Shown: in pieces, positions 13,168 through 64,000 of the stretch
How positions within the stretch are numbered: position 1 is the stretch's first letter
How the letters are laid out: each line of letters starts with the position of its first letter
Assembly (NCBI GenBank): GCA_000934665.2
Contig: JYFJ02001528.1
Coordinates: 1 to 64,000 of the forward strand
Source: Catajapyx aquilonaris
Taxonomy: Eukaryota
Reading direction: 5' to 3'
Length of the DNA stretch: 64,000 nt
Translations under genes and position numbers: made by a program
Notes under the pieces: generated by a model
Told to the model about the DNA's origin: nothing
Database searches by the model: none
The model's input: the letters and a program-made list of their open reading frames with translations, nothing else

Positions 13168-14068
13168 CGAGGGTAGTCCAATAAGTTCTGAGCCTAAGGT
13201 AGATGGCGTGGGCTGATAATGATGTCCTTCCACCTGAAGGTAGTGACACTCATTAGAGCAACAACCCCCAAACTTCACCCCGATTGCATCATTCTATCAG
13301 GAGATACTGGCACTTGCAGGCGTGAAAGTGCGGATTAGTCTCCGACATTGACAAAATCGAGCTGCGAGCAGTGATCAAATACTTCCAGAAAGAGGGGATG
13401 ACCCCTAAGAAGATTCACGAGGACATGAGGGAAATACTGTTTGACGAAGCTCCTTCATATGCCACTGTCAAAAGGTGGGCACGGGATTTCAAGATGGGTC
13501 GGGAGAGTGTGGAAGATGACCCCCGCTCGGGCCGCCCAGCAACGGCAACCACTGCGGAGAACGTCAACCGCATCCATGACATGGTCATGGGCTCATGGCA
13601 GATGGCCGACTCACCTCAGGGAGATGGCCATCTCGCGAGGTACTGTGAATCAATCCTAACGGACATATTGGGGATGCACAAGCTGTCGGCCAGATGGGTA
13701 ACCCGCGACTTGACGCCTGATCAGAAGCGGATCTGTGTGACACATTCACAGGCGCCATTGGAGGAGTATCGGAGGGACCGGGACACTTTTTGGCTCGTTA
13801 CGTAACACAAGATGAGACCTGGCTCCATCATTATTCTCCTGAAACCTCCGTGGGACGCACTTCTCCAGTGACAATGAGGTGATAAGTGCAATGTATGAGT
13901 GGTTGGGTGGGGTCGAGGAAGATTTTTTTACACGGAATACAGAGGTTGGAGCACCGGTGGGACAAATTCATCCTGGTTCAAGGTGACTACGTCGAAAAGT
14001 CTTAATTAAATTTTGACCATCAAACATGTCTTTCAACATCAGGCTCAGAACTTATTGGACGACCCTCG
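13168..14068 (+). mobile_element. Internally deleted mariner transposon
   Basis: TIRs CGAGGGTAGTCCAATAAGTTCTGAGCCT / AGGCTCAGAACTTATTGGACGACCCTCG with TA TSD. Length 901 bp. Confidence 0.95.
13346..14005 (+). pseudogene. Mariner transposase pseudogene
   Basis: HTH region, SGRP, KLSARWV motif, frameshifted VTQDETWLHHY, then a jump to the C-terminus LRGTHFSS...GDYVEK. Most of the catalytic domain is missing. Confidence 0.92.
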
Positions 14069-49300: not shown

Positions 49301-52300
49301 CACCTATTAGGCAACTTGAATGCCGTTTGCATGCCCCACCCATTCACTCACTGGGCTCACTCACTTCCCAAACAACCCAGCACGTGGATCTCTCCCAAAT
49401 TACAAGCGACGGTTGGGCTCAAGCACGGCCATGGACGATCATCATCAATATTCATCAGAAAAGGCCTGTGGAGCCACTTCTTACACTAGCCTTTTACGAG
49501 TGCTTTGGGTGCCAATCCGCCATCGGAAAACTGTAACATGGCTCAAGAATAATGCATGTTTGACTATGTGAGACTATGATTTGTGTAGTACCTAACAAGA
49601 GGCCAAATGATGACGACATTGGCCGCATATAATCTTATCTCGTTATCGCAATTGCATTGCCAAATGCAAGGATTCAGCCTGAGCTCCAGTCAAAAGAGCG
49701 TGACATCATCTGGCTCCCTTTGCGTTCGAATCTACTCTGCTGTTAATATCTCTACATCTGGTCGTCCTCTTGTCGGAGCCGATGATATCCCAGGATTTGC
49801 GTAGGGGGTGTCGAGTGGTTGCGGCGACCGGCGAGGATGAAAGGAGGTGCCTATATACACTTGACACGCGATTTTGACCAGTTAACCTACGTGATTTTTA
49901 CGACGGGTTAATGACAAGGAAGGGCACGAGCCAATTATTGTCTCAAAGTGTTCATTTTGAAATTTCGTTTTACTGCGAAATAGTGAGTAAAATTCAAGAT
50001 GAATCATTAATTCGTGTACGGTATACCTTTCGTGAACGAATTCTGCATTGTACGAGTAGAGCAAAACCATCCTATCTTATCGTATGACAAAAAGTGTTCG
50101 GGCCAAGAAGCCGACGGTTTTTCTTGACTATCAACACTGTATCATGAGTATCATCAAGTATCATCTTGATTACGTCAAAGCAATGCGAATTCTCTGGAAA
50201 ACTGGGAAGAAAGCCCAGTACACAAACAACTTATTTTGTACCACACAAGAGTTTAGAAAAGAGCTATGACACTCTATGTCTGCCATTTTATGACGAAAAG
50301 AATGCAGCCCGAGTGGCTTAGAACACGAAACAAACCTTTCGTGCTTTCGTTTTTACTCCTATTTCAAGTAGCTTTGACTGCAGCAATCCGCAATCCTCGA
50401 GAGGGCAAGGAAGAGAAAATCCGGCGCTTGGCATCCACGCGATTGGGCAGTAAGCAGAGGAGTCAATAGTGCTCCAGAGATTTCTCTGTTGCTTTGGATC
50501 TCGAAGATATCTGCCCAGCGTCATTCAGAATGTCTGCCAAATTCCTCTGGCTGCCTGCAAGATTTTCTTGCCAAGCTGACACACTATAGTAGTCTGATCC
50601 TGTATTCCGACCTTAGTCACCTGCTCGTTCATAAAATAAAGAATTTTTTTTATGGAAACAGGCTAGGGTGATTCCAGGCTCACTGAATCAAAATGGAATA
50701 ATTGATATCTGCATGCAGAAAATTACTATTTTTGGCATTCACTTATTCAAATAACCGGCCAGGACTTTAAAGTCAAAAAGGTCGAGCAATCTCACTTGGC
50801 AAGGAAATACCAAGTTTATTTGCGCATATGCTGTGAAGTAATTGTTTGGTCATTGGCACTATTGTTGTATATTTCCAACTGATGAATGTGCATACGCAAT
50901 ATATTATACGCTACAGTGTATTAATTTGGTTTTAATGAAAAGTTCATTATATATTGTACACTGTTAATGCAAACGATTAGGTTTCAACTGCGGCCACTAG
51001 TAACAATGTTGGGGGGATCAGCTGTCATCAAGTCGTGTTGGATGGTGACCACAAACTACAGGTATATGCTATTATGATTATGCAGCAAGCTAACTCCCGA
51101 CTGCTAGGCGGTGCTAGTAAATGAGACATTTCGACGAATAAGGTTTCAGTTCATAGATTTACATTGAAAACATGCTGTAAGAGGCCATTAAACGATTTGT
51201 CCCTTTGTTAACGAAGGAGACACGAGAAGCTTGTGCATTAGAAAATTATTATGACTTACTGTAACGACGACTATACTGAGACTTTCTGCAAAATTCGGAA
51301 AATTCTGCTGTAGGCTCCCTGCATAATTACGACTATGCTTCCATGTTAAGGTAGCGTTTTCACGCTCTTTTATCCTAAATGAGCCTTGAGACGTTGTTGT
51401 ATCTTTGCTTACACTCTTAAACATTTGTTACAAGCATATTGTTTCTTATAACCTTAAGCTCTTATACAGCAGTCAATTACAGTAATAATATTATTGAAGC
51501 ACTACAAGTGCGCAACAATTTCGACATGAGAGTCTTACAGAAATTCTGCTTATTTTTTCAATTAGCAAAAAATATAATGTCGCTTTATTGTAAGCAACTA
51601 GCATAAGTAGGACAAAAATTGCCCAAAGCCGGAAATGCGTACCCCAAACCTGTAATATCCGCGATGAGAGATCAAGACGAAGGAAATAGCTTTTTGTCGC
51701 AAATTCAGAGGGTATCAATCGAGTGTACACATCAAAGCAAGTACTGTACTTTCAACTGCTGCCTTAGTAGAAAACAACTAAATATATAGCCAACGTTTCT
51801 CTAAGCAGTGTACCATGTGTGTTGATCCACCCTGTATAGAGCAATTCAGGACGTGGAAAACGATGACTTTTGTTTATAGGAATTACAAGCTCATCTGTAA
51901 TTACAAATCCATGCCTTTGCAAACGCGACATACCGGTGAAATTGCTCATGAAAAATTACCATATTATGACACGTGGGGAGTTGATCGTGGACCACACACT
52001 CTGGCGGTCAGGGATATATCACTTGCCAATATTAGTAACAGTTCGGAAGCCAATGTTACATCGATTTGCGCACGACATCAGGCGTACCGGTATGTGAGTT
52101 ATTACAGTAGAAATTTGGTTGCAAAATGTCGAAACAATTTCTTCTCTAATGGGTAATACCTTATACCTTATAGTAGGTGGAAGCGAATATGACATGTAAA
52201 TCTGTAATCAGTCTTGCATTATGACCATCATGCGGTTGACGCTAATCTCCTGAAGTTTATATGTGATTGTTTTTAATAACCAATTAAATCCAAATGCCGA

Positions 52301-53429
52301 TTTTCAAGCACCACATTTCTAATTAAATTAATCGAGATGAGTGCACAATTTATATAATTCATAAATACAGCTTTAATGGCCTGGGCACACCATCATTAGT
52401 TATGAAATATTGCTTCATGACGGAGGGGGGAATTTATTTTGGACCATTCTGGTATGGGATGTCGGTTTATATGATCAGTTAGTTGTGGAAGTTATCCCCC
52501 TAAAAAGCAGCGTCATTGATATGAGTAAACGTGAGTTAAATATCTTACGAGGAGTGACTGTATAAGACGGCGATTGTACTGATAATACCATGTGCCAAAT
52601 TTTGTGCGGAACATGTTTCAACTAACAACTAAGTTTCTCAATAAGTGAACAAGCTCCATAAGGAAATCTGATTTCTTCCCCTGTGAAGAAAGGGGCTTCC
52701 TGCACACCCTGTGTATCGCAGGTTGGCCATATTAAAGAATGACAACAGGGTAGTCACTCTGCATATAGAGTGGTTTCAATATGATTCCTCTTTGCACATG
52801 TGACGCATTGGAGGCAGCGGGCCGGTAGCATACAGCAGTGGCAGCAGGGGCAGTAGCAGCAAGTGCGCAAGCGGCAATGGTAACATGTGTCCCCTTTTCA
52901 GGCAACGCTAATGAGCCCGAGATGAGATTGGTGATGGCTAGTGGTGCTGGTGGTGGATGAATGTGGAAGTACGGTTTGGTGGCAGAGCCAGTCGGATTTT
53001 GATAGGGAGCCCCACCTGCAAAACCAATCACCTTTTCCCACAAGCACCATCGACTCCCAATGCAGTGTAAATTGCGTGAAATTAGCCTTCGTTAAGCGCC
53101 TAATTTTCAAAACAGGCTTACCGCTGCCGGAAGGAAATTTAGCTTCATTAACTAAGTTTCACTTCTGTCACAACGCAATTTGAAATCGCGTGAGGCGGCT
53201 CCTATTGATTAATAGCCTCTTCCGATCCCTACTTTAATTTCTCTCTTTGACGATAGCGTCCCGGTTGGTCCCGGTAGGTGCTTATTAGACAGTAGCCTGC
53301 ATAGAAAAGTGCGGTGTTTTGCCTGTGTTGGTTTCATCCCAGAGGAATCTCTGCCAGTCGAACTGCTCTGACATTTACAAACGACTGCATTCAAATCCCT
53401 CTGTGTCGCACCCAAATGCGGAGGAAGTA

Positions 53430-53850
53430 ATGCAGGGATCGCGGGAGGTCACATTCCATTCAGCCATAGTACTTTTCCAAAAGATGTTTCAGGCTGCGCT
53501 CGCAAAAGGAGGAAATATACGATTGCGGGCATATCCGAAGGAATATCATCGGTTGGGAATTGAGTAGATGGAAGCCGTTGTGGAAGGACAATAAATACGA
53601 CAAAGTTTGATTTATCGTAAGAGGCTCCCAAGTCAGCAACGTCATAAAACGGGTAGCTTTCTGAGAGAAAACAGTGAAGTGCACTCGCCTTTTCCCAGTA
53701 GTCTGTGGGGGCCTGGGTTGGGCATTAGCCCCCAATGTTCCATGCAGGTTGCTCCATGACTGCGGCCCAATGCGGATAAGTCAAGGTTATGCCCGGAAAC
53801 CACATCACACACTAGGAAGTCAAAGCACTCTACTTCCATTCTGGTTGAAA
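53430..53850 (-). pseudogene. Decayed LINE ORF2 C-terminus
   Basis: QKATRFMT, LTWEPL and STMAEWN resemble QRRAARF, LxWxxL and RTxxEWNxLP. Confidence 0.35.
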
Positions 53851-56800
53851 TTATTCAAATCGCCTTGTTTGCTCATCTGCGAATTACAAATTAATAACCA
53901 TTAAATATCAGCAGTTCGCTCCGTTTCAAGAGTGGTGAGGAAAGTTTTGAAGGGCTATTTTCAGGAAGAACTACTGATCATATCCACGGTCCTTGTTGGC
54001 CGCCAGCCACAGACCGGAATCATATTTAGGGGTAGCAGGGACACATAATTGTACCGGCAAGAGATGGCAGACTGTTTCAGACTGATTCATTGGAACGAGA
54101 TATTTCCTAACTTTACGTTATACGGCCCCGTTGTTTCAGAGGCGCTTCCCGCACGTCATATTTCCATGTCGCCAATAGTTCGCTTTGTGTACCTTATCTG
54201 TCGCAAAGAAAGAAACGGCAGTCGGCTGGTTTGAAACTTGTGCTGTAGCTCGACCCGGCACTATATAACTTACGTAGCTGTGTCCACCGGGACAACCGAC
54301 ATCGGCTATAGCCTCCTTGTGCAGGGTCATAAATTTTAGCGCACTTTCACATTCGCTTCATCCAAATCCCAGTTGGTTCCTCTGAGCTCCATGGACTTTT
54401 TTTTCAAAAATATCTGGACGAATACGATGCAGTGCAAAGCCTTATACAAACTGAGCGGATAAACAAATACGCTGGTTGAGAGTAACAATATGTTTATATA
54501 GAAACCCAAAAATGAGCCACGTTAAAAGTAACTAGTAGCCCATTGTATATTTTATGTGTGAGGATGAAGCACAGTCATGTATGTCCTATCATTTATATGC
54601 TTTTATGTTTCTTTTGAGCTGAGTATTTTCATTTGGGCATTGTTACACATACAGTGTATACATGAGGTACCGTATATAGACTACATGATTTTTATCGACG
54701 TTAAAAAATTGCCGTAAGTCGCATTATTATTGCAACATTTCAAACAAAGGTGGAATAGAGCTTTGTTAGCAGAACGCTGTACTCCCTTGTTAGAAGCACC
54801 TGAAACATTACAATCATACAGTATAAAAATATATATCCGCTTACAAATAACGTCAGCTCCTATGAATCAAAAAGTAAAGTGCACAAAGGAAAATGTGCAT
54901 TCGTCATAATATTTGCTTCTTTTAATTAAGATACGGACTTCATCACAAATTCAGGTAACAAGCTACCTCTTGTTTGTAGGATTCGATCTTTCTCTAAATG
55001 AGGAAATCCCATGCCTCTGCTTGCCAAGAGTGTGGAAGGATCGCTGCCAGCTGTGCCTGTCTTCTGACCTGCTTTGCAGAGATACATTTTGTAGTCAGGA
55101 ATGGGAATAAAGAAAGAACAACGCGAAAAAACGGCCGAAGAGCCAGTAACTTGTTGATTATAGGATTATGATACGTCCATGCTCTGTATAAGTTTATAGA
55201 TTTCTCTAAGGGAGAGTAACTTTTAGCCAGGAAGACAATGACTTGACCATCAGAAAGTAGCCTACTTGTCAAGAATTCACGCCTAAGACCTAACATTCAC
55301 AAATACAATATTATCTGCGATCTGTATTGTACAGTACATTGTAAACATGGGTGAGTCAGTCCCAATCGTTATAAACATTCAGTTAGGAAGCTTCTTTCTA
55401 GGATAAGAGAGGGAGTAGCATATTCGATGGATTGTGCTTAAAATGCATAAATTCACGTAAATAAAACACATTATAAGTTTTAAATGTTAGTTTTATACAA
55501 GTTGATCTCATTATACAGTTTTGTAGGATACTGAATTTTTAATATTATTATACGCTCCAAAGTTACCAATGATTCTAAAGCCGTCTAAAGCAGTGTCTGT
55601 ACAAATATAATGGCGCAGTGCGGATTTAAAGTATAGACCTGTATGCGAATGACGAGCTTTACAGGAGAGTAATTTTTGGTATATTGGTCGCAATTAATTA
55701 ACTTCCTCTAAAGGTTTTTTGACAGCTCCATATTAATTTTGGTTGTGTACATTATTAATGTGGTTGCAAATTTCGGTACTTAATTCTGCGCTTTCATTTC
55801 TCGCAATTTTATGTTATAGCGGTGAACTCTCGCCGAGATTTATTGTCAGCGTCTGGAAATTGTGGATAGATGGAATGCAGCAGAAGTAGTCGCCCAACCC
55901 CATTCTAGTTGGGAAACATTCCAGTGAAATATCTGGCAAGCGGTGGCTCATCAGTCATCAAGATAAGAAAGTCCAAATTCATCAACACATGACCTTCCGC
56001 AGAGAATATATGGTGAATGCTACCGTGGAAGAGAAGGGCATCATTCACATAAGAATTTCATCTTACCTTCAGGCCATTCAATCCTTTTACATAGCCCCTT
56101 TGTTTTAATGGTTTGAAACGAAGAACTGTATTGCACACCCTTTTCTTGGAAACTGCTTTAATATCGCTGGGGAAAAAACTCACTTAAGATTACAGTAACA
56201 TTGGATTGTAAGTTAATTTCACTAAGTGTGCCCGGAATTGTCTGCCAGTTGAAATCTTACACTACTATAATCTCTTTAGTTAATGCATATAGTTCCGGAG
56301 AGATTTGATAATCATGCTTTACAGTATAGCTTTGAGATCAGAAAGTTTCCCAAGTCCAGGTAATACACTGAATCTTGATTGACACTTAACTTTCTCTTGG
56401 TGTAGGGGGCTTGAGATATTTAGTATTGTAATGTCAACTAAATCAATAATCTGCACTTGACGTACCTTCTTACGTAGTAATTTATTTTTCAATAAAGTAT
56501 GTGTCTACTTGGAGCCTATATTATGAAGTAATTATCAAGCAAACGCTTCTTCTATTTTGGACCCTTGCTTACATTTAAAAATCTTAAAATTTAAAAACGA
56601 AGCTTTACTTCTCTGCGTCAATGATTGAATAATATGCAGGGCTAGTTCATTCATGGAGTGTCACAAGCATTAAAATTCAAATAATGCGACCCTTTTATGT
56701 TATCTAGTTTCAAAGTACACCGGCACATATTACATAGAAAATATTGTTAATTTGAATGATATTCACTGATTTTGGTCAAGTTTTCCTCTTTCTGCCCATA

Positions 56801-59800
56801 TTCTAACGAAGAGGTGGTGTCCATAGATAAGAGAGGGTTCTATTATCTATGGTTGTGGCAATCACGTGCATCATCTTATCGTAATCTCAATCCATACTTC
56901 ACACCTGAACTCAAACGGGATAACTTGCCGTTGACTCCCTTGCGAAGAAGTGAAATTGTCATGTCATGCATACGAAGCGAGGTACTGTCGCGGCCAAAAA
57001 GCGAAAGAAGAATCGCAAGTGATTCCAACGAGTTTCCCTGAAATTGCTGCAATGTCTGTACTTCAGTGTTATTGTACCATGGAGTATATCAAGATTATGA
57101 CGTCCGCTACTGCATAATCGCACTATATAGCAGAGACGTTTCTGCTTTTACAGTGTACTCATTGGAGCCATTAATGATGGACCGGCTTCATCTTTTTTTT
57201 CCGCTAGAGTACTTCAGAAATTATCATATGCATGTCATAAAAACTCCGCGTCTTATTGACTTAAGTTATAAACGAATTAAAACCCAGTATTTGACTTTGC
57301 TGTCACAATCCAGTGCAAATGCAATTGTACTAAATCCCTCATGATATTAGTCACATAATACATCATAACTTAGTCTTACACCTGCAGGAGTAGAATATTA
57401 ACGAAGTCAGGTGTGAATGATCCATATGGCTTGCATAGCTCTCCATAACTATAAATTGGATGCCGCATGAAAATCTGCGTGCCTTGAGCCGAAAAGTGTG
57501 CTCACGAGCTTTAGTTGTGCAAGGGTAGGCAAAATCTCTCTCTCTCCCTGAGGACTCTGGTACGCCCATGTTTGCGGAATGATGATTCGGTCGGGATTAA
57601 AGAGGTCACGTCCCATTAGGCTAGTGGGGAACCTCTTTGGAACCCTGGTGACATAAGCAAGTTTTCTCTTTTTGCCACATTCAGCAGCCAAGAGCCTGGA
57701 ATTTGCTTAGTTTTTACATGCTTGAAAAGAGCAGTCTCTTTTGTAAAGAAACACTTTCAAGCAGTTCATGCTACATTACTACATCCTTGCTATCCAGGGA
57801 GGCATTTTGTTATGCGTTTTCTCGACAATGCTTCTGAAAAGCACTCACTTCCGTAATGGAGTTACACCATTTCCCCTATTTTTTACTCCAGACATTCAAG
57901 TGCGCTAAACCAGGAATTTCATACAAATAGCCTACTGAAGTAGACACAGTTACTGCTGTGCATTTTTGGAAAGGTTTCTCACACCCTAGAAAGCTGAACC
58001 GGTGTACAATAGACCACAGTAGATGCCGCTGGCCAAAAGAGGGCTCATGTGTCTGAAAATTTTTGAAGTGTTGCTTCAACTCTGCTCTCGTTGACACGTG
58101 AAATACCAAGGGACGAGCCATCCGCCGGAAGATTAATTATCCTCAGCTTCCATAGCATCTTTTCACTTTAGACTTTCAACGTCAGTGGTGCGGAGGAAAA
58201 CCAAGTCATCGGATGAATGAAAACCGTTTTCCACATTGTGGCTTCACTTCCCCCCCCCCCTCTCCCCCGCTCAAAATGTTCAAAATGGATTCTTTTCAGA
58301 TGGCGTTTAAGATGGGGGGTTTCTGGGGGTGTCCAACGTTACTTACCACCTGAAAGCACTGGTGCGTTGGTGGTATGGTGCGCGCGCATTTTATAGAAGA
58401 GTGCCGGAGCCTGGCCAATCGACTAGAGTGTAGGACTTGTAGGCTACGCACAAGAGGTTTCGTCTTTGCTTGGGAGAGATCAATAACTGAATAGCGCTCC
58501 CACAGCCTAGTAGCACATGATGTGTAGAGGGGTACGTTGGGACTGCCTGTAGCATCCAGATATGCAGTACATGTCGTCGGAAATGGATTCGCGGGAAAAA
58601 AATTTGGCGTGATTTAGGGCGGTTCAGAAAAGGTGGGATGGCCACTAGGCCAGGGCTTACATTTCATAAACCTGTATCGTATAATCGATAGGTTGGTATA
58701 GCAAAGCTAAAATAGAACTATGCATCGACGCGCAAGCGTTGATTTCAAATACTCCCGCACCAAATCAATAGTGATAGTTCTGTAAGCAAACGTATTTGAT
58801 CGAAGTATGACCAATACTGTGCCTTTACTATAGCAAGGCTTTCATTTTGATCCAGTTTTGCCCGTGACTCCAAGTGTTTTCTGTTCCCCGCCACGACAGA
58901 CGAATCAAATGGAAATAAATGATCGGGGGAGTCGGAAGAGGCAAAGACAAGAGCAAGTCGATTCCCCGGTGCCGCTACTTTGGAGAGCCTCTCTCCAAGA
59001 GTTTGTGCCGTGAATTTCTGGCGCCGGAAAAGTTTGGTAGCCCCCATGCTTCACGTTGCTGGCCACGACACCTCGGCCAACGTGAGCAGGGAGTCGGCTC
59101 GGTGACGGGGAAGACACGCTTGATAAGCGAAAATCCAGTTTGTAGCTGAGCCTGCCCAGGGAATGGCAATGGCGCCACGTGCAGTGGTCTCTATACAGTC
59201 GCCGCAACAAGTAGCTGCAGGCTTGGACAAGAGGGGTGGGTGGGATGTGTGGTGGGAAGGAACGGAAAGTGCGGGAGAACTTCGGAACTGTTTTTGCACT
59301 ACTAGAGCTCGGTTGCAAAAGCATACACTGGCAGGCGGGCTGAGACAAAGGCAAGCAAGTGTATTGAACAAGCGCCTACGTGCTGGGAGAACCCTTTAAG
59401 AGAAGATAGTGAGATCGACCCAGACTCTAGTCTTCATTACAGTTGTGTTGCGGTAATGAGGGCACCTATTGATTATTATTTTTCTCTCTCCAAACCTTCC
59501 CTCCTTCCATGCTGTGCGAAACTTCTTTTGAATGCTCTGCCTCATTTTGCGCGAAATTTGACAAACTTGGGGTTTTCCAGCATTGTGTAACTCCGAGTTG
59601 GGGGGAGGGGGTTGTTGTCGTGAAGGAGGAGGGAAGGGAGGGAGGGAGGGTGAAGGGGGGAATGAGTGAGGGTAGAAGGGTGGAAAAAGAGATTCGTTTC
59701 ATTTTCTTCGATGGCCTCTCCGGATGTGGAGCCAGTTATTTCGGTCCCCGGGAGCTGTTGAGAGCGAGCTGAATCGATCCCGGACTCCCGAAAATGGGAA

Positions 59801-59971
59801 TCACCTGATGGAACGGGCTTGGCCGCCGAGGGAAGCAAGAGCTTGAAGGAATCAAGAGTAGCACCTCCTGTACGTCCTAACTACTTGACCTTCCTCCTTT
59901 CCCTCACGCCTCTCTCCATCCCACTTTCATTCATTCCCGTCTTTCTCTCTTTCTCTCTTTTTCGACGGCAG

Positions 59972-59978
59972 CCACAAT
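59972..59978 (+). CDS. Predicted 7-nt micro-exon supplying the AT of the LRR gene start codon
   Basis: AG-free pyrimidine tract 59881-59969, CAG acceptor, CCACAAT, then a consensus GTAAGT donor. Confidence 0.6.
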
Positions 59979-60178
59979 GTAAGTTGGTGCAGAGGCGGCA
60001 GAAGGCAAGGCGAGAGGCTTCATGGCCCCATCTGGTAGCTGGCAGACGACGTCATCACTGCCGCGCCTTTTCGTGACCTCCTACCTTCCCTGGTGGAAAG
60101 TTCAGTAAGCTACTAATAATAAAGCCAAATGTCTGGTACCAACCATATTCTACTGTACTGTGCTATTCGCAATGTTAG

Positions 60179-63100
60179 GTCCACCAGGGACGGCTGGCTG
60201 GGTGTAGTGTTGCTGCTGTTGCTGCCGGTCTTATTGCTTCCTGTTGGGGTCAACGGAAACAAATGCCCTCCGGTGCAAGAGAGTCCACAATGCGCCTGCT
60301 ACCACTTTGATGACGGCGTCTTTCTGGAGTGCCCCAGCGTGAGCCTACAGGCCCTGCATGACACTCTCAAGATGGTATCGGCTCCAATCAAATCGCTGAG
60401 CGTCTACGATCTGGACAGAAACTTGTCCGTGCTTCCCAAGAATATGTTTCCAGATGACTCCCCGCCCGTCCAGCATTTGCAAATATCGCATTCTGGCATC
60501 GAAGCTGTGGACGAGGAAAGCCTGACAGGTCTTCGGGACAGTCTTGAGGCATTGACGCTGGTCAACAGCCGCCTGCAGCATGTACCTCAAAAAGCGCTAG
60601 AAAGGTTGACTCGTCTGCGTTCATTAGATCTAGAGGGAAACCAGATTCACGAGCTTCCCAGTTATAGTTTTTTTGGCCTTTCCCTAGCCAAAGTAAACCT
60701 GAAGAGCAATCGTTTAGAAAAAATAGCCGAATATGCGTTTGCGGGATTGGAAGAGTCTTTAAGTGAATTGGGCATGACGGAGAACAAACTCAAAACGTTT
60801 CCGATGACAGCTGCGATACGATTGGCCAGTCTGCGCTTCCTGAAGCTGGCCTGGAACGAAATCGACACGATTCCTTCAGATGGGTACTCAAAGCTGCCAT
60901 CTCTCGAGTATCTAGATCTAAGTTCCAACAATTTCGTCGCCATTTCGGAAGACACTTTTGAAGCGATGCCGCAATTGACCACCTTGTCTCTCTTGTACAA
61001 TGCGATTGGCAATGTCGATAAGAATGCGTTTCGATCTCTGACCGAGCTTCAAACTATCGATTTGAGCCACAACAAGATCGTCTTTTTGGAGAGCACCACT
61101 TTCTTGCGGAACAAGCGCTTGAGGACTATCGACTTGAGTCATAATCACATTCACTACATCAACGAAGCCTTTTCCAATTTGACAGAATTGCGTGAACTCT
61201 TTTTGCTAGAAAACAATGTTTTGAGCATACCCAACGAAGCGTTTTTGGGCTCCAACCAACTCTCTGTCATTTATTTGCAACAAAACGCAGTCAAGAGCGT
61301 GGGGGCAGAGGCACTGGGATCTTTAACTAACCTCTCCCAGATTCATTTGAGTTCCAACTATATCGAACAGATACCTCCCACTCTGTTTGAGCACAATAGG
61401 AGGCTAGCCTCGCTCAGCCTAGACGGAAACAGACTCACTCAATTGTTTCCTGGCACCTTCCGCAGCTTACTTGAGTTGCGAGAGCTGCGCCTACAACTCA
61501 ACTTTTTGGGCTCCATTGAACGTGGAGTGTTTGCCCCTCTGCCTGCTCTCCTAGAATTACATCTCCAAAACAACCGTATCACACACATAGATCCTGGAGC
61601 ATTTTCTACCTTGAGAAAGCTTCAACACATCAATCTTCAGGGCAATTTCCTGACTCACCTTGGAGAGGTGTTTAGTTCCAGCGCGCCAAACCTGCTGTCC
61701 ATCCAATTGGACTGGAATCAGTTGGTCTCTATTCACCGGGACTCTCTGCAAGGTCAAACGGGTGTCCAAATAATGTGGTTGGGTCATAATCGGTTACCCC
61801 AGCTGAATGCCTCCCTCCTAAGCGACTTGCACAGCGTTCAACGCCTGTACCTTACCTACAACGAGCTGAAGGTGGTGGAAGATGGGGCCTTTGAAAACAT
61901 GGCAGCATTGCAATTTCTGGAGATGAACGACAACCGACTGGTCAGCATCACTCGAAACACGTTTCGCGGCTTGGCTAGCTTGGAAGAGCTGTACTTAGCT
62001 CGCAACGCACTGACGCAAATAGAACCGGCGTCTTTCGACGTACTGGTGCGTCTGGGCTCATTGGATTTGTCAGGAAATATTCTCCTGACCCTTAGCGACC
62101 AGATGTTTCAAGCTAAGCTACCCTTGCAAATGCTGAACCTTGGCCAAGCCGCACTCCAGAGCATCTCCCCGGGAGCCCTTAAGCCTCTGGTCAGCCTCCG
62201 CGAGTTGAACCTAGAGGACAACCAGATCAGTGCAGAGTCCATCCCACACTTACAAATCGACACGTTGCAAGTGCTGAAGCTCTCGGGTAATAATCTGAGC
62301 CGCTTGTCTGAGGAGGTCAGCCTGGCTCTGCCCTCTCTACAGCACCTGTCTGTAGAAGATGCTTCTCTGGGCAGGATTCCTGAGGGATTGTTCCTGCAGA
62401 CGCCCCAGGTGCAGGTGTTACGCCTAGCCCGGAACCAACTGCGGAACATCACGCCCTCTACCCTGTTGCCACTGCATGCCTCTCTCCGGGAGCTCTATCT
62501 GGATGGCAACAACCTACGTGCCTTTCCTTACCAAGCTTTGGCCAACGCCAGCAGTAGCTTGGAGGTGCTGACCCTTTCCAAGAACCGCATCTCCAACGTG
62601 GACGTGTCCAAGCTGTACCTGCCCAAGTTGCATACACTGGACCTGAGCGCCAACCGCCTGACGCGCATGGTGGACTTTGCCTGCTGCCCTCCGGCTCTTC
62701 CCAACATCCAGAAGCTCGATTTGAGCGGGAATCGCTTGTCACGTTTGCACCAGGCCTTCTTTCTCAACACCACTCTCTCCCGGGTCAATCTGGCCTCGAA
62801 TCATTTCGTGCACGTACCGGAGCCATTGTCAGAGAGGAATCTTCGAGCCTTGCGCGTGCTCAATCTGACGGGTAACCCCTTACTGAGTCTGCATGAGGAC
62901 GTGCCCCTGCTGCCCAGCTTTCCAGCAGTGCTGGAATTACATATCACTGGCACTAACCTCTCCATACTCACCAGCAAGGACTTTGAAGCCTTTCCGGCGC
63001 TCCTGCACTTATTCTTGCGCGCCAACCTGATTGCACGTGTTTCTCCGGGAGCCTTCCGGCCCCTGACAAGCCTTCTCACCCTTGATCTGGGCTCCAACGA

Positions 63101-63218
63101 GATGGAGTTGCTACCTCAAGAGCGACTGCGAGGGCTCCTCCAGCTGCGTCTGCTCAACCTCACTCATAATCGCCTGAAGATGTTGGAGGAGTTTCCCAGG
63201 GATCTGCAAAACTTACAA
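60179..63218 (+). CDS. Large coding exon of an extracellular leucine-rich-repeat protein (chaoptin/artichoke-like), 3'-incomplete
   Basis: Lies within the 1038-aa ORF 60129-63245. Hydrophobic signal peptide, Cys-rich LRRNT cap (CPP..CAC..LEC) and dozens of LxxLxLxxNxL repeats. Likely TAG acceptor at 60178 and phase-0 donor CAA|GTTAGT at 63219; no LRRCT or TM segment in the window. Confidence 0.95.
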
Positions 63219-64000
63219 GTTAGTCAATTCATTATTTCTGCATGATCCTTGAAGCTGGTTATTACATGTACTGTACGCTTTGATGTTCGAAATAGTTATT
63301 ACTTATTACTTATTAAGTTTAATCTGACCATGTCGCAGCTGGTAATTTGAAGTGTTTTTGCTCCGAATTGGAATCTACAGTGCACATAGTCTGCCTGCCT
63401 ATACACTTTTATACACAGAGATCCTTGAGTTTTTCATCATTTTGCCTGATATCTATATAGCTCGACATCTCTTTTGCGCTCTTTGAAGTATGCTTCAAAG
63501 GTTGAGTGAATATTCTACAGCCGCGTCATTATTCTCACTAGTAAGTTCTTGCAGTGTGTGACACTATAGAGTCCATAATCTAGGCCTCTGTGGGAGTGTG
63601 ATATCAGAGCAGTGCATATTATAAGGATGAATGATAAAGAGACGGGCCGTGTGCATTCGAGCCGTTAATATTTTCGCCCTCGTAGATTTCTCAAGCTGTG
63701 CAATTTCTTCACGTGCTTGATACATTAGAGGGCTATGGCCTATGCTATAGGAATTTGCGATCATATCGGAGAGAAAGGGACACTGCAACATATTATATTG
63801 CGTATTTATAAAACCACGACTTTATCCCCCCCCCNCCCCCCCCCCCCCAAATTAAGTTTTCGAATGATTTTCCGTTTTTATTGGTGCACTGCAGTACTAG
63901 AAACGAGCATTGTTACAGGCATACAAATTACCTGTACGACCTCACACGTGTTTTGCACTCCTCCGGCCATAGTCGTCCGAATGTCAGAAAATCGTCTCAA

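Follow-up and report, generated by a model that had tools for sequence, protein, structure and literature searches.

Introns that disrupt the start codon, lying in phase 1 or 2 of codon 1, were noted by Nielsen and Wernersson in 2006 (PMC1626468), and the accessible part of a study on Yarrowia lipolytica describes 42 introns whose 5' splice site falls after the A, T or G of the start codon (PMC13309789). A literature search on start codons split by introns gave no nuclear animal gene among its matches. Here we analyze a candidate for this layout in front of a leucine-rich-repeat (LRR) gene of Catajapyx aquilonaris, near the end of a 64,000-nucleotide (nt) stretch of contig JYFJ02001528.1 (hereafter the window, to which all positions refer). 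As in the described introns, the exon would end in AT and be followed by a GT donor (AAT/GTAAGT, 59976-59984), and the acceptor is an AG followed by a G that falls at codon position 3 in the frame of the open reading frame (ORF) (TTAG/G, 60178/60179); the unspliced form likewise cannot make productive use of that ATG. Unlike those introns, the candidate splice is read here from the sequence, it is not conserved in orthologues, and a contiguous in-frame ATG lies within the putative intron. If real, the split start would join a known, rare gene layout.

Other described systems resemble parts of the locus. Among human micro-exons, the available part of PMC9929638 lists a 4-bp exon in MPC1 and a 7-bp exon in MUSK. 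In both, as in the motifs seen here, a few nucleotides lie in front of a consensus 5' splice site and behind a strong 3' splice site whose pyrimidine tract is long; as far as that source goes, however, they were demonstrated by cDNA and lie in coding sequence, whereas the 7 nt considered here may merely end the first exon. Leader elements made of an AUG and an immediate stop (10.1101/2021.07.26.453809 and PMC13338717, in their available parts) would have a counterpart if the intron were retained, namely an ATG-TAA with A at -3 upstream of the main ORF. Unlike in the elements described in those parts, the stop here is built from the first bases of the donor site and so is automatic, and its presence in an mRNA is hypothetical. 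The ratchet points of Drosophila, which are recursive splice sites of long introns, need juxtaposed AG/GT. The locus shares with them a very long pyrimidine tract, a CAG and a nearby GTAAGT; a recursive splice site is nevertheless ruled out, as 7 nt (CCACAAT) stand between AG and GT, the exon has no GT at its start, and no 5' splice site would be regenerated.

Candidate start codon joined by splicing

The single most likely model, to which we give a probability of about 0.5, is that the start codon is split and joined through the junction 59978/60179. An upstream exon would end in CCACA-AT at 59978, a 200-nt phase-2 intron (GTAAGT, CTAAT, TTAG) would be removed, and the G at 60179, the first base of the coding exon, would complete the ATG; translation would then yield Met, STRDGW and a standard cleavable signal peptide. 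We favor this model because the donor is unique, the phase-correct acceptor comes with a branch-point motif and an AG-free zone, the codons upstream of the acceptor look non-coding, and the joined ATG has an A at -3. The odds (about 2:1 over the next model) rest on rough likelihoods set by judgement, in which a low prior was weighed against the coincidences. Motifs, phase and frame are observed directly; from them we infer the splicing, the transcription start and any regulation.

An earlier sequence-only reading had proposed the same AT/G splice, placed on a 7-nt micro-exon and serving as a switch. The splice leads on sequence grounds, the micro-exon stands at the level of motifs, and the switch is unsupported. 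Re-reading the sequence bore out all of its motif coordinates: AT (59977-59978) and G (60179) do give an ATG in frame with TCC ACC AGG and with A at -3, and the start-stop (59977-59982) and the in-frame ATG at 60129 of the unspliced form are present as it claimed. Its AG-free tract of about 90 nt measures 88 nt, with 84% pyrimidine (Table 1). In the 64 kb, 59882-59969 is the sole 88-nt tract on the forward strand with at least 84% pyrimidine, AG-free gaps of at least 110 nt make up 6 of the 3,775 gaps on that strand, and ATGTAAGT occurs once on the forward strand and not at all on the reverse. Since the tract, the AG-free gap and this motif are rare or unique in 64 kb, the elements of the split start are more than background noise.

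Table 1. Positions of the sequence features at and around the candidate split start codon
Feature	Position	Strand	Remarks
Purine-rich tract	59595-59694	+	The window's minus strand has no other 88-nt tract with at least 84% pyrimidine
Pyrimidine tract	59871-59969	+	84% pyrimidine; AG-free over 59882-59969 (88 nt); holds CTAAC (59877-59881) and TTGAC (59885)
CTAAC	59877-59881	+	Within the pyrimidine tract
Candidate 3' splice site CAG/CC	59970-59971 (AG)	+	Pyrimidine fraction 0.83 over -20 to -4; motif only
CCACAAT	59972-59978	+	7-nt internal exon or last 7 nt of a longer 5' exon; supplies A and T of the start codon
ATG-TAA	59977-59982	+	Reads as a start-stop only upon retention of the downstream intron
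Candidate phase-2 intron, 200 nt	59979-60178	+	GTAAGT donor (59979-59984), CTAAT (60113-60117), AG-free 60125-60176, TTAG acceptor (60175-60178)
28-codon ORF plus TAA	60022-60108	+	Intronic in the split-ATG model; upstream ORF in the unspliced model
Inverted-repeat left arm	60084-60097	+	14 nt, 13/14 complementary to 60180-60193 (first exon bases)
Rival acceptors AAAG/ (60100) and TTCAG/ (60105)	60099-60105	+	Pyrimidine fractions 0.72 and 0.56
Contiguous in-frame ATG	60129-60131	+	17 codons upstream of 60180; C at -3, T at +4
Large coding exon	60179-63218	+	Signal-peptide core, LRRNT cysteines, LRR repeats; ends at donor CAA/GTTAGT (63219)
Second in-phase acceptor, CACCAG/G	60186-60187 (AG)	+	9 nt past the first acceptor

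Choice of donor and acceptor

We surveyed 50000-60170 for GT sites whose phase fits 60179, which have an in-frame ATG and match at least 7/9 of the donor consensus. Eleven sites pass, and 59979, the only one to reach 8/9, is both the best and the nearest; the next-nearest phase-compatible donor, at 7/9, lies 2.96 kb further upstream. The ten further donors, 3-9 kb upstream, would allow a more distant coding first exon, in the window or beyond it, to join 60179 in phase 2, and the draft-quality patches of the window, such as an N within a poly-C run near 63836, leave room for a base-call error that hides a contiguous ATG. We regard both possibilities as very unlikely, considering that those donors reach only 7/9 in poor intronic positions and that nothing points to an error at 60177-60179.

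On the acceptor side, CTAAT at 60113 is the sole YTRAY (Y, pyrimidine; R, purine) branch-point-like motif within 59979-60178. It lies past the rival acceptors (60100, 60105), so the only acceptors that it can serve are 60178 and the CAG/G with its AG at 60186-60187, and the 53 nt preceding acceptor 60178 contain no AG. Use of the acceptor at 60186-60187 would remove S-T-R yet keep the signal-peptide core. When 60178 is used, the polar N-terminal stretch of the spliced form has 7 residues, as in most orthologues outside Hymenoptera and Diptera.

The same donor could instead serve an ordinary intron of the 5' untranslated region, running from 59979 to TTCAG at 60105 (or to 60100), with translation starting at ATG 60129. 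In that case, which we consider unlikely, the large exon would begin at 60106 and the leader, of 7 + 23 nt, would be free of upstream ATGs; that GTAAGT follows an AT and that AGG codons occur in phase would be coincidence. Such an intron has in its favor that the acceptor at 60105, a CAG, has pyrimidine-rich sequence at -19 to -33, and that ATG 60129 is in frame and its frame open. Inside the putative intron, however, there is no YTRAY motif upstream of the acceptors 60100 and 60105, the only one being downstream, and chance would have to provide both an AT at -2/-1 of the donor and an in-frame AGG, a codon that is rare in the large exon (7 of 991 codons).

Codon usage upstream of the acceptor

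Codon usage also bears on this ordinary intron, in which 60132-60179 would be coding. With a synonymous-codon score trained on the mature part of the large exon, the 16 codons that follow ATG 60129 score -0.33, a value as low as that of 4 of the 970 in-frame windows of the exon and one that 68% of the 16,783 open non-coding windows reach. The density ratio of coding to non-coding is 0.066 for these codons and 5.4 for the held-out codons 60180-60257, and the third codon positions are G or C in 7/17 codons upstream of the acceptor versus a fraction of 0.62 in the large exon. By this score, the coding signal appears to start at the proposed acceptor, and the non-coding look of the upstream codons counts against the ordinary intron, though the test is imperfect. 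A raw codon log-odds test was dropped since it was confounded by amino acid composition, one Cys codon contributing -5.2.

The LRR gene and its protein family

The window is eukaryotic, repeat-rich DNA. Within its final 5 kb the one clear gene is a long forward-strand ORF, open from stop to stop over 60123-63245 and in frame with ATG 60129, and the large exon comprises about 1,013 codons up to its donor at 63219. Its product matches Pfam LRR_8 in 18 stretches (E 3.4e-140, above the Pfam threshold), and the LRRNT-type cysteines C29, C38, C40 and C51 are invariant in a 14-sequence alignment (A1). Translation from 60180 gives STRDGWLGVVLLLLLPVLLLPVGVNG, followed by NKCPP; judged by eye, this N-terminus has a short polar stretch (STRDGW), an 18-residue hydrophobic core and a V-x-G cleavage motif (V-N-G), and is a plausible cleavable signal peptide. 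The product thus combines LRR_8 repeats and an LRRNT cysteine cluster behind a signal peptide, as expected of an LRR extracellular protein, and sequence comparison identifies the gene as a receptor-like one of arthropod LRR(+FN3) type, for a protein that is secreted or in the membrane.

A full-length protein search gave 2,317 matches among 8,000 candidates scored. The best was a UniRef entry from Timema shepardi (P0001), with 53% identity over 97% of the exon product; identity was about 50-52% in Hymenoptera, 41-45% in Diptera and 39-43% in decapods. No closer relative appeared among shorter proteins (12 matches among 4,713 candidates, the best at 57%). The nearest proteins are arthropod LRR+FN3 proteins automatically named "protein artichoke-like" or "chaoptin-like", hymenopteran RefSeq models included. 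Since proteins named plain artichoke (Atk; e.g., P0102-P0107) are merely 26-27% identical, these names are automatic labels and do not indicate orthology. The LRR+FN3 proteins share with the window gene the LRRNT cysteine motif and the many LRR_8 repeats; the FN3 and the C-terminal part of the window gene fall past the window end. In one orthologue (P0121) there is an apparent intron after about 500 residues, where the product passes from NLQ into non-LRR sequence; compared with the exon of about 1,013 codons found here, this break means that intron positions differ between lineages.

Start codons of the orthologues

We collected 17 orthologous loci from metagenome contigs, among which five independent lineages have 5' DNA: the L001 group (the closely related L001, L002, L003, L015 and L016), L004, L009, L010 and L014. 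Their main starts have, in 5/5 lineages, a purine at -3 and an A at +4 (ATGA). At the window gene the -3 base is an A at the split ATG and a C at ATG 60129, so that on this point the ordinary intron fits less well than the split start.

Several observations weigh against the split start. The sequence-only reading had named conservation of the split ATG in orthologues as a check, and this came out negative: in all five lineages with 5' DNA the ATG is contiguous and sits in the large exon, 28-70 nt past an inferred acceptor. The orthologues therefore do not share the split, whose prior is low. The motif ATGT[AG]AGT is absent from 15/17 loci, and in the other two (L012, L013) occurs only at unrelated places. 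Polar N-terminal stretches of 18-20 residues are found in L004 and L014, and so the 23-residue stretch that would follow from ATG 60129 is not out of family. That same ATG is an alternative contiguous in-frame start, which a start-codon-disrupting intron should lack, and in the accessible part of their article Nielsen and Wernersson call such introns "relatively rare". At 60178 the pyrimidine tract is modest (0.56), and 62 nt separate the acceptor from its branch-point motif. Calibration of the synonymous-codon test on four orthologue N-terminal stretches gave coding-like scores for L004 and L010, a non-coding-like score for L009 and an ambiguous result for L014 (94 training codons); we therefore take the test as informative but weak. 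The orthologue layout, with an acceptor 28-70 nt before a contiguous ATG, and the long polar stretches known in the family fit the ordinary intron ending at 60105.

Exactly one short upstream ORF (uORF), with a purine at -3, lies between the inferred acceptor and the main ATG in each of the five lineages. In the L001 group, L004 and L010 its TGA stop overlaps the main start as ATGA (3/5 lineages); in L001 the pattern was read at 2343-2375, L009 has a 2-codon uORF, and L014 has an ATG-TGA start-stop 3 nt past the inferred acceptor. To judge from these sequences, the pattern looks like a conserved translational control of the gene family.

It is in this context that a leader without any intron at 59979-60178 can be considered. 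The exon would start at 59972, a 157-nt leader would carry the ATG-TAA and the 28-codon uORF, translation would begin at ATG 60129, and GTAAGT would be the chance outcome of a TAA followed by GT. The presence of one short uORF with purine at -3 in every orthologue leader is consistent with this arrangement, as are the likeness of the L014 ATG-TGA, 3 nt past its acceptor, to the 5-nt spacing here, and the fact that no acceptor-like site is stronger (0.83) than the CAG behind the pyrimidine tract, itself unique in the window. Start-stop elements are, moreover, a regulatory class described in the available parts of 10.1101/2021.07.26.453809 and PMC13338717. On the other hand, the leader would measure 157 nt versus 28-70 nt and hold two upstream ATGs, one of them opening the 28-codon uORF, versus a single uORF in the orthologues; a perfect donor 8 nt into the exon, with usable acceptors downstream, would hardly be silent; and the non-coding-like codons and the C at -3 of ATG 60129 count against it as they do against the ordinary intron. 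We therefore hold an unspliced leader to be decidedly unlikely.

Among short shared sequences, the 10-mer TTCGCAATGT is common to the window and L001 only and is not conserved in the four close relatives of L001. Another, TTTTTCGACG, is shared with L001, L002, L003, L015 and L016 and is no evidence either, since a 10-mer in common with 59700-60179 was also present in 115 of 400 locus pieces of 499 nt drawn at random.

The putative 7-nt exon and the region upstream

Together with the CAG and the distant CTAAC, the pyrimidine tract forms a strong acceptor-like site (0.83), and all orthologues have an acceptor upstream of the start, which by analogy favors an acceptor at 59971. The internal 7-nt micro-exon of the sequence-only reading is thus matched at motif level by the tract plus CAG and by GTAAGT at 59979. 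A convincing upstream donor was not found in 58000-59900, where no donor for an exon upstream of 59971 exceeds 7/9 (four sites at 7/9, none at 8/9), a further point against the spliced model; such an exon could be more distant or lie beyond the window. As a whole, we treat the micro-exon as a tentative proposal with the odds against it; provided that the junction 59978/60179 is real, the balance would tip modestly in its favor, and the AT could equally be the end of a longer first exon.

The tract may serve splicing, as a long polypyrimidine tract whose branch point is distant, or it may be a CT-rich element of a promoter or leader. The purine-rich tract and the pyrimidine tract immediately precede the gene, separated by about 180 nt, and are the sole such tracts on either strand. 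Given the mirror purine tract, both could be promoter-type low-complexity elements, which argues against the micro-exon. G+C content is 0.49-0.53 over 58000-60250 versus 0.32-0.44 over 56000-58000, and this GC-rich region with its tracts may be a promoter region. By eye, in comparison with general consensus sequences, we noticed an Inr-like TCATTC twice at 59927-59936 and no DPE or TATA. Reading from about 59811 to 59976 we found no ATG, so a transcript beginning in that interval would have the split ATG as its first AUG. A hairpin between the two tracts was considered and rejected: the fold has a z of -1.88, with 1/100 shuffles as good, but the alignment of the arms was matched by 43/500 composition-preserving shuffles, and the complementarity is for this reason compositional only.

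A proposed regulated switch and the origin of the putative intron

The sequence-only reading went on to propose that both forms are made and that translation or secretion is toggled by including the 7-nt exon or by retaining the 200-nt intron. Long pyrimidine tracts that lack AG and have a distant branch point are a layout associated with regulated exons, and retention would put the start-stop and the uORF in front of ATG 60129, which makes a switch structurally possible. We nevertheless find it rather improbable. The same hydrophobic core and V-N-G cleavage motif follow both starts, so the mature protein would be identical and secretion should not differ; between the two starts, only translation efficiency could differ. 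The ATG-TAA, in turn, follows automatically from AT/GTAAGT and needs no selective explanation. The claim of a translation-or-secretion switch was pure conjecture.

A lineage-specific "start-codon capture", in which the ATG of a start-stop uORF became the main start, is a speculative scenario to which we give a low probability. It would have begun with an ATG 5 nt past the acceptor, whose TAA-GT reads as a GTAAGT donor, while the AGG codon of the polar N-terminal stretch would read as an acceptor; the former leader, with the former start (ATG 60129), would thereby have become intronic. Removal of the intron would then produce a clean mRNA, and its retention one repressed by the start-stop plus uORF, both encoding the same mature protein.

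If the junction at 59978/60179 is real, automatic gene models of this species would miss the start or call a longer N-terminus from ATG 60129, with the mature protein unchanged. The gene would add to the animal cases in which the start codon is interrupted after its AT, with the AT possibly on an exon of 7 nt, and, given the contiguous ATG and short uORFs of the orthologues, would be a dated case of a leader sequence becoming an intron.

Repeats, folds and other features of the window

Pairing of the inverted repeat (60084-60097 with 60180-60193) would loop out the rival acceptors, CTAAT and ATG 60129, and its stem is present in both the minimum free energy and the centroid folds. The fold of 59972-60200 is no better than those of shuffled sequences (z 0.06, 92/200 as good). 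At the ends of the putative intron there is a direct repeat (59975-59998 and 60170-60193), 16/24 identical, both copies beginning with CAATGT; found post hoc, it is equalled by 7/1000 shuffles and 12/2000 random pieces of the window. Birth of the intron by duplication was rejected, as the repeat does not extend and the alignment of 59975-60169 with 60170-60364 was matched or beaten by 172/300 shuffles.

Long poly-C runs, one with an N, occur at 63827-63850 and 58250-58270 and suggest that the assembly is locally uncertain. At 13326-13805 (forward strand) there is an open frame of 159 amino acids which, by eye, we take to resemble the N-terminal DNA-binding part of a mariner-type transposase. 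The 58 kb upstream of the LRR gene are otherwise without long conserved-looking ORFs.

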